IMG/VR virus record: IMGVR_UViG_3300029566_000105
Coordinates: 1-5,914 of that record
DNA from: a virus
Direction: 5' to 3' (one strand)
DNA: 5,914 nt
Positions 1,657-5,914 of this stretch are shown piece after piece. The position numbers and the translations under genes are program-made. How positions within the stretch are numbered: position 1 is the stretch's first letter; each line of letters begins with the position of its first letter. The notes beneath the pieces are model-generated. The model ran no database searches. It was given only the letters and a program-made list of their open reading frames with translations, and was not told where the DNA came from.

Positions 1657-3285
1657 TTACAGCTTATACAGGCCAGGTACGCTGTACAACGGCATACGCC
1701 GTACGGTCTTGTTCGCTACTCTGATTGCCCCAAAGAATTGAGGCTCGTCCTGCACAATCAGTGTCCGTGCAATCTCTTCTTTACCTTCGCTCATCCATTC
1801 CTGTGAGAGTGTTGGTACGGCTTTGTAGTTGTCTGCATAGTGCCAAAAGTCCAGCGTTCCGGTTGCGTTGCTTCTCATGAGGCCGCTTACTCGGTTTGGT
1901 TTCATGCGATAGTCCGCCCATGCTTCCTGATAGCCAAACGTCTCTTCGTCCGTTGCTGTACCGGTTAGCATGATTTCCTTTTTCTTTACAGGCTGTTCGC
2001 CTAAGTTGGCAAACTGCGGTACATAATAGTCTAGCCTGTCTTTTCTGGACCAGAACCGCTCAAGTCCCTGTTGGTACGTTCGAGTGTGTCGCACGCACAT
2101 GACGCCAATGACGAATCCGTGCTCCTCAAAGCTCTTTGTGAAGGAGCTTTCGTTGATGGGCGTTACTGACATCGCGCCAGTTTCACCGATGGGTGTGTCA
2201 TTGCCGGTTTGCTGGCCGGATGTCTGTACAATTTGGTTCATGTTGACGTGATAGCGTCCGCCGCCTAGATACTCCGGAATCTGTACGGTTTTGTCACTGA
2301 TAGTTACATCCCACAGTGCCTGTATCTGCTCACGGTATCGGCTGCCGCCTCGTGCCATTGCTTCGTAGTACTGCTGTACTGCAATTGCGTTTCTTAGCTC
2401 GTTGACGGTTGTTGCTGTTACGTTTGACAGGTCTGCACCTAAGAACTTCATTGCGTGCTGCTCTTGGGTCGAGTTTCCGTATATTGCCATGACGTTTTGA
2501 TAGTTTTCTATACTGCCGCTGGCGAGGTTTAACCCAATTCCAGTTGCAGTTTGCTTTGTCAGTTCTGCGTTATCGAACATTTTTGTGGGTGCATTGCCCG
2601 TCATTGGTACGGTTACGTCTGGTCCACGCTGAGGATAAGGCAGACAGCTTGTGAAGTAGTCGTGGAACTTATTTACAGGAAGGCACTCTCCTCCTGTGAT
2701 TGCGTTTTTGAGCACCTCATCGATTGTCTGAATCTCTTTTTGCGCATAGATTTCGTTATCATTGCCTGTCTTTAATACGGCTGCATTTTCTACGTTTTGG
2801 TCTCTGAAAAATTCATTCCAGATTTTTACATAAGCTCTGATGGGGAGAGCATTGATTCTAAACGTTTGCTTAATTTTGGTTGGCACACCCATGTAGTCGA
2901 GGATGCTTTTTTCTTTAGGTTCTCCGTTTCCGCTTCCTGTTATTTTGATTTGTGGTACGCTGTATGTTTTGGTAGGCGCCCACGGTGTTTCTTCTACTTC
3001 GCCCATGAAGTTTTTGAAGCTGTCCCACAGAATGCGGTTTGGACAGTAGAAGTAGTATAGGTCGATGTACGCGTCGTCCATGACTGGATATTTCGGCGTT
3101 GTCATACGGATAATTGCGCTGGTATTTATCTGGAATGTATCGCCCGGCAGCACTTCATCTACGAAGAACGGGATAAGTTTGCCGCTGTCGAATGTGGTTA
3201 AGATTGTCTGGTCGCGGTTGAAGCGCGTTCGGCTTGCGTGCATTTCCGGTACGTTTAGGAAATGTCTTTCATTGTTCCTGTTCAT
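1657..3285 (-). CDS. Major capsid protein VP1 (F-like), 542 aa
   Basis: The N-terminus RFNRDQTILTTFDSGKLIPFFVDEVLPGDTFQIN matches the conserved gokushovirus VP1 N-terminal signature (HFDLS...G.L.P....EV.PGD.F). The size is typical. An SD AAGGGAG lies 9 nt upstream of the ATG at 3285. Confidence 0.93.
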   Translation of the reverse strand: MNRNNERHFLNVPEMHASRTRFNRDQTILTTFDSGKLIPFFVDEVLPGDTFQINTSAIIRMTTPKYPVMDDAYIDLYYFYCPNRILWDSFKNFMGEVEETPWAPTKTYSVPQIKITGSGNGEPKEKSILDYMGVPTKIKQTFRINALPIRAYVKIWNEFFRDQNVENAAVLKTGNDNEIYAQKEIQTIDEVLKNAITGGECLPVNKFHDYFTSCLPYPQRGPDVTVPMTGNAPTKMFDNAELTKQTATGIGLNLASGSIENYQNVMAIYGNSTQEQHAMKFLGADLSNVTATTVNELRNAIAVQQYYEAMARGGSRYREQIQALWDVTISDKTVQIPEYLGGGRYHVNMNQIVQTSGQQTGNDTPIGETGAMSVTPINESSFTKSFEEHGFVIGVMCVRHTRTYQQGLERFWSRKDRLDYYVPQFANLGEQPVKKKEIMLTGTATDEETFGYQEAWADYRMKPNRVSGLMRSNATGTLDFWHYADNYKAVPTLSQEWMSEGKEEIARTLIVQDEPQFFGAIRVANKTVRRMPLYSVPGLYKL

Positions 3286-5000: not shown

Positions 5001-5026
5001 GGTTTTCACCTCTTCTGCGACTTAAT

Positions 5027-5063
5027 TATCTTAATTATATTGCTTGTTAATAGGCTTTTCCAA
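5027..5063 (-). promoter_or_regulatory. Candidate sigma70-type promoter on the minus strand: -35 TTGGAA (5063-5058), 18-nt spacer, -10 TATAAT (5039-5034)
   Basis: It has a perfect -10 hexamer and a 4/6 -35 hexamer with the correct spacing. It sits about 35 nt upstream of the first gene of the gene block and downstream of the VP4 terminator. Confidence 0.35.
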
Positions 5064-5119
5064 TGTTTTCTGATGATTGTTATAATTTTGTAACCTTTTT
5101 TCTTGCTTCTTTGTTTTGA

Positions 5120-5160
5120 AAGGCGCTTTAGCGCCTTGCCGTGCGTAGCGAATGCGTAGC
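5120..5160. promoter_or_regulatory. Operator-like element: a perfect hairpin AAGGCGC-TTTA-GCGCCTT (5120-5137), then the direct repeat TGCGTAGC-gaa-TGCGTAGC (5142-5160) with 11-bp phasing
   Basis: These were seen directly in the sequence. They are located about 60-100 bp upstream of the candidate -35. Confidence 0.3.
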
Positions 5161-5192
5161 TCGGCCAATCCATTCCTTTCTCGCTTGCGAGT

Positions 5193-5304
5193 TTTCAACA
5201 CTTTCAACACTTTCAACAGGTTTTCAACAAAATGTTGCACAATGATTTTCGTCATTTTGACGAACTTTCAACAATTCAACAAGTTTTCAACAAATCTTTC
5301 AACA
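5193..5304 (+). repeat. Iteron-like array of nine direct copies of TTTCAACA (one is ATTCAACA)
   Basis: Copies are at 5193, 5202, 5211, 5222, 5266, 5274, 5285 and 5297, with a partial copy at 5351, spaced 8-12 bp apart. The array is in two blocks interrupted by the 5248-5264 inverted repeat. The region is non-coding. Confidence 0.8.
5248..5264. repeat. Inverted repeat TTCGTCA-ttt-TGACGAA. Each arm matches the TGNCGAA heptamer (Spo0A 0A-box-like).
   Basis: It is a perfect 7-bp arm palindrome placed in the middle of the iteron array. Confidence 0.5.
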
Positions 5305-5357
5305 TTGTTTTTTGCTTGTTTTTAACGCATTATCGTTTTAAATTTATACTTTTCAAC

Positions 5358-5366
5358 TTTTCCACA
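5358..5366 (+). promoter_or_regulatory. DnaA-box-like 9-mer TTTTCCACA (fits TTWTNCACA)
   Basis: It is an exact match to the relaxed DnaA-box consensus. It lies directly after the last partial iteron. Confidence 0.3.
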
Positions 5367-5370
5367 GCCT

Positions 5371-5385
5371 CTACTACTACTACTA
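5371..5385. repeat. (CTA)5 trinucleotide microsatellite
   Basis: The sequence is CTACTACTACTACTA. Confidence 0.9.
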
Positions 5386-5394
5386 CAACAAGTT

Positions 5395-5456
5395 AATATT
5401 ATAGCGCGCGTGCGCGCGTGCGCGCTATCGCGCGTGTGCGCACGCGTGAATATTAT
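5395..5456. repeat. A 46-bp GC-rich alternating purine-pyrimidine tract. It has two near-palindromes, at 5401-5428 and 5431-5446, and is bracketed by AATATTAT direct repeats (5395-5402 and 5449-5456). It may form Z-DNA or a cruciform, and is a candidate complementary-strand origin.
   Basis: The alternating stretches are GCGCGCGTGCGCGCGTGCGCGC (22 nt of strict Pu/Py) and CGCGCGTGTGCGCACGCGTG (20 nt). The 28-nt element ATAGCGCGCGTGCGCGCGTGCGCGCTAT is palindromic except for two G/T positions. Confidence 0.75.
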
Positions 5457-5500
5457 TATTTGATGGACTGAATAGTGTGATACATGGAGTCTTTAGACGA

Positions 5501-5536
5501 TAAAAGCCCAGTACCTTACTTGATAGGTACTGGGCT
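5501..5536 (-). terminator. Rho-independent terminator after VP4. The stem arms are 5505-5516 and 5525-5536.
   Basis: On the coding strand a perfect 12-bp stem AGCCCAGUACCU / AGGUACUGGGCU with an 8-nt loop is followed by UUUAUCGUCU. It lies 12 nt after the VP4 stop. Confidence 0.55.
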
Positions 5537-5547
5537 AGGTGACACCG

Positions 5548-5914
5548 TTAGAGTGTCCCCGTCTTCTTTGTTTGCTTTTTGACTATTCTTTCTTTTGTCT
5601 TTAAGTCCTCTGCATAGTCTGTTTCTTCATATTTTAGCCTGTTCTGTTCAATTATTGCCTTTTGCCGGTTTTTTTTGATTCTCCACAGTCTTTCAGGGTT
5701 TTCTGCTTCCATCATTTTTTCATAATAACGCGGTATTTGCGCTCTTTTTCCGTTGGTGCACTGAATATAGCCCTGTTTCCAGATTTCCTCTTTGTGCTTT
5801 TGGTAATATTCATCTCCTAGTCCCGGCTTTAAGCTCATGCATGCAAAAGGTTTTTGCTGTCCTAGTTCGTAGTATGCGTTGGCTTTTTTTCCGTCTATCT
5901 CGTACATTTTTTTT
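5548..5914 (-). CDS. Replication initiation protein VP4, C-terminal part. The stop is at 5548-5550. Positions 5816-5914 duplicate 1-99.
   Basis: The ORF-track protein MYEIDGKKANAYYELGQQKPF...KKTGTL continues the frame of the 1-752 segment across the circular junction. The 99-nt identity of the window ends proves they are contiguous. Confidence 0.9.
   Translation of the reverse strand, partial: KKMYEIDGKKANAYYELGQQKPFACMSLKPGLGDEYYQKHKEEIWKQGYIQCTNGKRAQIPRYYEKMMEAENPERLWRIKKNRQKAIIEQNRLKYEETDYAEDLKTKERIVKKQTKKTGTL
5816..5914. repeat. A 99-nt exact duplicate of positions 1-99. It is the linearisation overlap of a circular genome with a 5,815-nt unit length.
   Basis: My base-by-base comparison found 1-99 identical to 5816-5914. 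The VP4 ORF reads through the junction in frame. Confidence 0.9.

Follow-up and report, generated by a model that had tools for sequence, protein, structure and literature searches.

An invertible non-coding cassette of gut gokushoviruses resembles the DnaA-dependent unwinding module of their probable hosts' chromosomal origins

The DNA analysed here (the window) comprises 5914 bases, which correspond to a circular genome of 5815 nt plus a terminal redundancy of 99 nt. It is the genome of a gokushovirus-type microvirus. All coding genes are located on the minus strand of the window with ribosome-binding sites of the AGGAG type, and the gene for Rep/VP4 spans the junction of the circle (Table 1). 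Beyond the C-terminus of Rep ten residues, TVSPSPVPIK, are encoded in another frame; in some relatives they are in frame and Rep extends by 10 codons into the hairpin that follows the gene. There is only one non-coding region, 538 nt in length (5010–5547), which is bounded by this terminator-like hairpin on the rep side and, at its other end, by the promoter-like site preceding the first gene. The repeat array under study lies between these two elements, so that its earlier assignment to an untranscribed region is plausible. Two smaller features were seen on the promoter side. Between the -10 hexamer of the promoter-like site and the first gene's ribosome-binding site there is a perfect tandem duplication of CTTAATTAT (two copies, 5021–5038), and between the cassette described below and the promoter (5119–5160) we found a hairpin (AAGGCGCT/AGCGCCTT), which is kept in many relatives, together with two direct copies of TGCGTAGC.

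Table 1. Features of the window and their positions.
Feature	Position	Strand	Sequence or remark
Rep/VP4, 339 aa	752..1 then 5815..5548	minus	spans junction
VP1, major capsid protein	3285-1657	minus	
VP5, VP3 and VP2 (pilot protein) genes		minus	
M15 peptidase	4785-4387	minus	
Small ORF	5009-4782	minus	
Promoter-like site	5034..5063	minus	TTGGAA-18-TATAAT, before first gene
Whole cassette (putative DnaA cassette)	5190..5406		behaves as one unit; block-wise inversion in some related genomes
Exact copies of TTTCAACA	5193, 5202, 5211, 5222, 5266, 5285, 5297	plus	
One-mismatch copies of TTTCAACA	5274, 5351, 5359		ATTCAACA at 5274, TTTCAACT at 5351, TTTCCACA at 5359
Distal sub-array A	5192..5229	plus	TTTTCAACA, CTTTCAACA, CTTTCAACA, TTTTCAACA; 9-mer starts 5192, 5201, 5210, 5221
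Box-like site, co-oriented	5233..5241	plus	TGTTGCACA; one mismatch from TTWTNCACA
Palindrome between sub-arrays	5247..5263		TTCGTCA-TTT-TGACGAA
Distal sub-array B	5265..5304	plus	CTTTCAACA, AATTCAACA, TTTTCAACA, CTTTCAACA; 9-mer starts 5265, 5273, 5284, 5296
AT-rich linker, distal array to proximal boxes	5305..5349		
Tandem proximal boxes	5350..5366	plus	TTTTCAACT (5350-5358) and TTTTCCACA (5358-5366), starts 8 nt apart; conserved
Spacer	5367..5370		GCCT, 4 nt; length fixed, sequence variable
Five perfect DnaA-trios	5371..5385	minus	(CTA)5 on plus = 3'-GAT-5' x5 on minus; expected 0.01
Phage-specific motif adjoining trios	5383..5394	minus	AACTTGTTGTAG; in nearly every cassette examined, in 0/33 host loci
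AT-rich stretch past trios	5386..5403		~18 nt; position of DNA-unwinding element
GC-rich alternating block	5404..5448		rep-side boundary of cassette; 20-bp hairpin as single-stranded DNA
Hairpin just after rep stop (5548)	5505..5536	minus	loop TATCAAG conserved, stem covarying; candidate rolling-circle nick site and/or terminator
Candidate Rep nick sites (alternatives)	5513-5528 (hairpin loop) / 5389/5390		

The repeated unit of the array is TTTCAACA. Seven exact copies are present in the window, all on the plus strand within 5193–5304, whereas 0.26 are expected, and none of 200 shuffled sequences reached seven. Counting the three copies with one mismatch as well, the nine repeats plus TTTTCCACA reported in the initial annotation are confirmed. 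The copies are arranged as two sub-arrays of four and a final pair. The proposed spacing of about one helical turn holds inside the sub-arrays (start-to-start distances of 9, 9 and 11 nt in the first and 8, 11 and 12 nt in the second) but not across the 44 nt that separate the sub-arrays or the 54 nt that precede the pair. The final motif TTTTCCACA does fit the relaxed DnaA-box consensus TTWTNCACA exactly and is the only exact match in the window. When one mismatch to this consensus, which is that of E. coli, was allowed, the scan returned 20 sites compared with 12.6 expected and is uninformative on its own.

The array forms the distal half of a 217-bp cassette (5190–5406) that is arranged like the basal unwinding system (BUS) of a Firmicute oriC. 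Eight co-oriented boxes are followed by an AT-rich linker, a tandem box pair, a 4-nt GC spacer, (CTA)5 and an AT-rich stretch; written out on the plus strand, the proximal part reads TTTTCAACT/TTTTCCACA-GCCT-CTACTACTACTACTA-CAACAAGTTAATATTATA. The (CTA)5 block, which is absent from the initial annotation, begins 4 nt past the last box. A composite of box and trios did not arise in any of 2000 shuffles. Describing the repeats as an iteron-like array, with titration as one possible role, is thus incomplete, as the array belongs to a full unwinding layout consisting of tandem boxes, a 4-nt spacer and five DnaA-trios.

A BUS is defined by a DnaA box that deviates from the species consensus by no more than 2 mismatches, points towards the trios when read 5'-TTATCCACA-3' and is adjoined by a co-oriented second box. 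The spacer may span up to 16 nt counted from the better box and is about 4 nt long and GC-rich where it follows the proximal box. At least three trios 3'-NAN-5' (consensus 3'-GAT-5') are required on the strand that pairs with the box top strand, with an AT-rich unwinding region beyond them, and strand separation should depend on both DnaA and the trios. In the window TTTTCCACA serves as the exact TTWTNCACA box, TTTTCAACA matches the box of the host clade described below, TTTTCAACT provides the co-oriented neighbor, GCCT the spacer, and the (CTA)5 block has the orientation of the published definition with which we compared it. Past the trios, the AT-rich region of the window extends for only about 18 nt before the GC-rich hairpin. 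For comparison, the BUS of B. subtilis oriC is composed of DnaA-boxes #6/#7, DnaA-trios and a DnaD recognition element (PMC6669920, PMC8287927, PMC10201434), and its scaffold reads TTATCCACA/AAATCCACA-GGCC-CTACTATTACTTCTACTA (PMC8287927 supplement). Predicted Clostridium systems have TCAACA boxes with A at position 6; the predicted BUS of C. botulinum is TTATTAACA/TATCAACA-AGCC-(CTA)6 and that of C. acetobutylicum TTATCAACA (PMC8287927 supplement). In the C. difficile origin CTACTACTATTACTACTA lies downstream of three boxes. The DnaD recognition element consists of TnnT repeats, which the (CTA)n strand supplies, and the plus strand at the phage trios also has TnnT repeats resembling this element.

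The cassette is predicted to form no structure when single-stranded, in contrast to its GC-rich flank. Around this flank (5394–5456) we noticed a GC-rich block of alternating purines and pyrimidines (CGCGTGCGCG...) in an otherwise AT-rich genome; it lies between TAATATTAT and GAATATTAT, and in some relatives its place is taken by a different GC-rich hairpin. Between the two sub-arrays a palindrome is found, both arms of which fit the Spo0A-box pattern TGNCGAA. We rejected this reading: of 138 related cassettes only 23 have the palindrome in exact form, and host origins show no clear enrichment of TGNCGAA. The palindrome belongs to part of the family only, and a second clade has another conserved sequence in its place. 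Searches of Rfam and of a plasmid collection returned no match.

The cassette is present in more than 150 gut gokushovirus genomes with Rep identities down to 38%. In GenBank, 52 gokushoviruses from human, pig, monkey, mink, raccoon and other samples match the non-coding region, including genomes with coding regions too diverged for megablast. We also selected 80 relatives from IMG/VR by Rep similarity alone. Nearly all complete genomes among them have 4–11 co-oriented boxes, and the strict pattern of trios, spacer and tandem boxes is found in 69 of the 80, with a spacer of 4 nt every time and, in 54 of the 69, a distance of 62 nt from the proximal box to the first distal box. Retention extends to genomes whose Rep is only 38–56% identical to that of the window. 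A search of viral contigs for the core pattern gave at least 119 IMG/VR matches, nearly all of 4–6 kb. With the canonical-box version, TAGTAGTAG-N4-TGTGGATAA, 17 matches were obtained in viral contigs; none was of microvirus size and all but two were on contigs longer than 15 kb. The initial annotation had taken absence of the array from close relatives as grounds for dismissing it, but the relatives do have it.

Conservation tracks the functional motifs, with spacers and linkers varying. All 454 phage boxes are in forward and none in reverse orientation. Single boxes are exchanged for TGTGGAAA in relatives, and for the perfect box TGTGGATAA in L076 and PV067914, as expected of DnaA sites. The only close relative apparently without the cassette, L029, was discarded as an assembly chimera, an 8.8-kb contig with portal, terminase and MuF genes of a tailed phage, and the other apparent absences are contigs ending inside the non-coding region. 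A 10.7-kb contig, L019, carries two opposite cassettes and resembles two joined microvirus genomes. Both L019 and L029 are probably artefacts of assembly in IMG/VR.

We scanned one genome per bacterial species for the trio-spacer-box core of the phage (GTAGTAGTAG-N5-GTKGAAAAGTTGA). This yielded 33 loci (L196–L228), almost all from Clostridia annotated as Oscillospiraceae, Ruminococcaceae, Ruminococcus or 'Eubacteriales', many of them on contigs tens to hundreds of kb long. By tblastn, dnaN begins next to the trio side and/or dnaA ends next to the box side in 31 of the 33, and Pfam confirmed DnaA and DnaN at two loci. Since none of the 33 contains microvirus capsid, pilot or Rep genes, these are chromosomal origins and not prophages. 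As the scan used a pattern derived from the phage, it indicates the probable host at the level of a clade.

On the box side of these loci, beyond the part fixed by the search pattern, the top 8-mer is TGTTGAAA with 154 copies in this orientation and 55 in reverse, often in head-to-tail runs at 9–12 bp spacing. In the two orientations together it reaches 15.7 per kb there versus 0.49 per kb elsewhere in the loci. Being the dominant repeated 8-mer at dnaA-dnaN origins, TGTTGAAA is the probable DnaA box of the Oscillospiraceae/Ruminococcaceae host clade. The trios are exactly (TAG)5 in most host origins and number 3, 4 or 6 in the rest, most also have a 4-nt spacer (GGGC/GGAC), and the 40 nt corresponding to the AT-rich stretch have 80% A+T. 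The phage core is 83–97% identical to some host origins over 35–58 nt. By sequence comparison, then, the phage region reproduces the host origin layout. The earlier remark that the repeat is one mismatch from the DnaA box was right but stopped short of its being the dominant 8-mer at the origins of the probable host clade as well; this, along with the interchange with TGTGGAAA and TGTGGATAA in relatives, strongly supports the suggested link to DnaA and makes it more specific. Some host dnaA-dnaN regions (L203, L215, L219, L202, L226) extend up to about 1.5 kb with well over a dozen TGTTGAAA boxes head-to-tail, a long multi-box architecture that may be undescribed.

The cassette occurs in both orientations. 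In five close relatives (L022, L036, L054, L071, L078) blastn aligned a segment corresponding to window positions 5190–5406 on the opposite strand, with both flanks collinear, and in the distant genomes KT264800 and KX513876 the cassette is opposite in sense to their genes. The GC-rich quasi-palindromes on either side could mediate this inversion. The hairpin after rep lies outside the cassette and is found on the coding strand in 130 of 146 genomes irrespective of cassette orientation. Its stem occurs as CCCAGTACC, CCAAGTACC, GGGCCTAATCC or GGGCCTATACC, each with a matching partner, and the complement of its conserved loop is ACTTGATA, which resembles the core of the phiX174 nick site. Chp2 has ACTTGAT in the loop of a comparable intergenic hairpin, there on the coding strand. 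In the window the hairpin is a candidate for the place where Rep nicks, and the site would here seem to be on the antisense strand.

Over the whole window the coding strand has 38% A and 17.6% T, an extreme strand asymmetry that leaves the antisense strand T-rich; at four-fold sites of the VP1 gene (1657–3285) the values are 44% A and 12% T, with an average of 47% A in relatives. At four-fold sites, genomes with an inverted cassette do not differ in composition from those with a normal one. Base composition alone does not assign the packaged strand, as the coding strand is very A-rich with either orientation and, on the coding strand, Chp2 is T-rich but phiMH2K A-rich. Strand asymmetry and hairpin-loop motif raise the question whether this clade packages the strand complementary to the mRNA.

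Taken together, the inversion of the cassette, the fixed hairpin after rep, the unchanged four-fold-site composition and the lack of predicted single-strand structure indicate that the cassette works on duplex DNA, that it can be separated from the likely Rep site and that it does not act as a promoter element. For B. subtilis it is documented that distal boxes act whatever their orientation and distance. A single-strand origin of complementary-strand synthesis would be expected to give the packaged strand a strong, orientation-dependent fold; the cassette is predicted to have none and occurs both ways round. An UP element or enhancer would hold a fixed position and orientation relative to the promoter, but several clades have the cassette inverted.

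We base our interpretation on the observed sequence layout, the identity with host origins, the conservation and the independence of orientation. With a probability of roughly 0.6, region 5190–5406 is a phage-borne copy of the host's chromosomal DnaA-dependent unwinding module that acts on the double-stranded replicative form. Microviruses replicate, according to the textbook, through nicking of one site by the phage Rep; besides its own rolling-circle Rep, this small single-stranded DNA phage probably recruits the initiator DnaA of its host. Host DnaA would bind the eight co-oriented distal boxes and the tandem proximal pair. ATP-DnaA would then oligomerise from the proximal pair, cross the 4-nt spacer and extend onto the five minus-strand trios, opening the duplex at the trios and the adjacent AT-rich stretch (5371–5403). 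The opened (CTA)n strand would most likely recruit DnaD and the helicase-loading pathway of the host, and the host initiation machinery would replicate or amplify the replicative form alongside Rep-driven rolling-circle synthesis. Judged from sequence, binding of DnaA to the cassette is highly likely and unwinding by DnaA likely, and loading of helicase or theta-type replication can be put forward tentatively. The AT-rich stretch of about 18 nt in front of the GC-rich block is short for two helicases, which speaks against this explanation. To our knowledge microviruses do not require DnaA, and Rep-driven rolling-circle replication should suffice. As the phage-specific AACTTGTTGTAG lies beside the trios, a phage protein may also act here.

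An extended form of this interpretation regards the replicative form as a DnaA-controlled minichromosome of the oriC type, which would undergo theta replication through the host DnaA-DnaD-helicase pathway and use Rep-driven rolling-circle synthesis, started at the hairpin beside rep, for virion DNA only. We know of no report of a theta-type mode in Microviridae and consider this version rather unlikely. If it holds, a 5.8-kb circle would persist like a plasmid in Oscillospiraceae/Ruminococcaceae, in a carrier state without integration.

The unwinding could instead serve Rep itself: a bubble opened by DnaA would expose AACTTG/TTG on the minus strand (5383–5394) in single-stranded form, and Rep would nick there to start rolling-circle synthesis. 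This sequence resembles the phiX174 nick site CAACTTG/ATA, abuts the last trio and accompanies nearly every cassette down to 38% Rep identity, host origins being without it. However, the better phiX-type match ACTTGATA is located in the covarying hairpin loop by rep, which never inverts with the cassette, and the loop of Chp2 is of the same kind; equal four-fold composition in both orientations is also unexpected if cassette orientation set the displaced, packaged strand. The fixed hairpin and the unchanged strand composition weakly count against a second nick site, and we think it improbable.

About as little credit, or slightly less, is given to the array being a DnaA sink, in which some 11 boxes per replicative form would titrate host DnaA and thereby stop host initiation or couple phage expression to DnaA. 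The ten to eleven host-type boxes per genome and their position upstream of the sole promoter-like site agree with such a role, but titration has no need of trios, a fixed 4-nt spacer or a tandem pair offset by 8 nt, all of which are conserved, and the strict co-orientation of boxes towards the trios points to directed oligomerisation. DnaA is a transcription factor in many bacteria, and DnaA or another factor bound to the array, 130–270 nt upstream of the promoter-like site, might activate or repress the single promoter. Inversion in whole clades shifts and reverses the array relative to this promoter and the trios are left unexplained, making a transcriptional role very improbable; the enhancer or UP-like function suggested in the initial annotation is unsupported in view of the same inversion, and the data speak neither for nor against the partition site also proposed there. 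The repeats might instead be iterons recognized by the phage's Rep or some other protein of the phage, like those of iteron plasmids or CRESS-DNA viruses; they are indeed short, direct, tandem and near rep, but the motif is the host origin box, stays unchanged with Rep diverging to 38% identity instead of co-varying with the initiator, and is fixed neither in orientation nor in distance relative to rep and the rep hairpin, so that this can hardly be the case. Equally hard to credit is a homology patch for integration at the host origin or a functionless piece of captured host DNA, as the identity with host origins noted above might suggest, given that the shared stretch is short, no host locus contains microvirus genes, functional motifs are conserved where spacers and linkers vary, and the plasmid collection gave no match.

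If the cassette is indeed a complete host-origin module, a large group of gut microviruses would have a second, DnaA-dependent replication input, and it might offer a concrete mechanism for the persistence in the gut of phages without an integrase. From its sequence, hosts among the Oscillospiraceae/Ruminococcaceae can also be predicted for phages not cultured so far, and with about 220 bp and natural inversion variants it provides a compact natural substrate for studying DnaA-box/trio origins of genetically difficult anaerobes. Full-text searches that combined Microviridae or gokushovirus with DnaA box, DnaA or oriC yielded no relevant paper, and among the papers listed as mentioning both DnaA-trios and bacteriophage no title or opening of an abstract dealt with a phage-borne module. 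While the kind of origin module is known, its occurrence as a mobile, invertible cassette in a rolling-circle single-stranded DNA phage appears to be undescribed.

Among known systems, B. subtilis oriC shares with the phage cassette co-oriented tandem boxes starting 8 nt apart (#6/#7, TTATCCACA/AAATCCACA), a 4-nt GC-rich spacer (GGCC, in the phage GCCT), trios opposite the box top strand at 12 nt from the upstream box to the first trio, an AT-rich stretch past the trios and further boxes upstream. The cassette differs in being located on a 5.8-kb single-stranded DNA phage with a HUH-type Rep, in its boxes of the TCAACA variant, in its short AT-rich stretch followed by a GC-rich hairpin, in the phage-specific motif beside the trios and in its distal boxes, which are all co-oriented. 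The dnaA-dnaN origins of Oscillospiraceae/Ruminococcaceae share with the cassette the box TGTTGAAA, the proximal pair [T/G]GT[T/G]GAAAAGTTGAAA, in most cases (TAG)5, and head-to-tail box runs at 9–12 bp. Unlike the cassette they have boxes in both directions (154 to 55), longer AT-rich regions and dnaA/dnaN flanks, and they are without AACTTGTTG.

Plasmids and prophage-plasmids such as P1 (oriR), pSC101, F and RK2 are also mobile replicons with host DnaA boxes beside the origin. In these origins a few such boxes accompany iterons that serve the replicon's own initiator, and no trio module has been described, whereas the phage has a whole host unwinding module and encodes no iteron-type initiator. 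Like datA and DnaA-box clusters, which are dense boxes outside oriC without box-spacer-trio geometry, the phage array is a dense cluster of putative DnaA boxes outside oriC, but it is set in a conserved trio geometry, which argues for more than binding. A further parallel would be the origin and primosome assembly site of phiX174, non-coding elements on a microvirus genome that recruit host replication proteins, as we propose for the cassette. The phiX174 elements act through Rep nicking or through PriA on single-stranded hairpins; the cassette, in contrast, is predicted to stay without structure in single-stranded form and corresponds to a duplex DnaA site.
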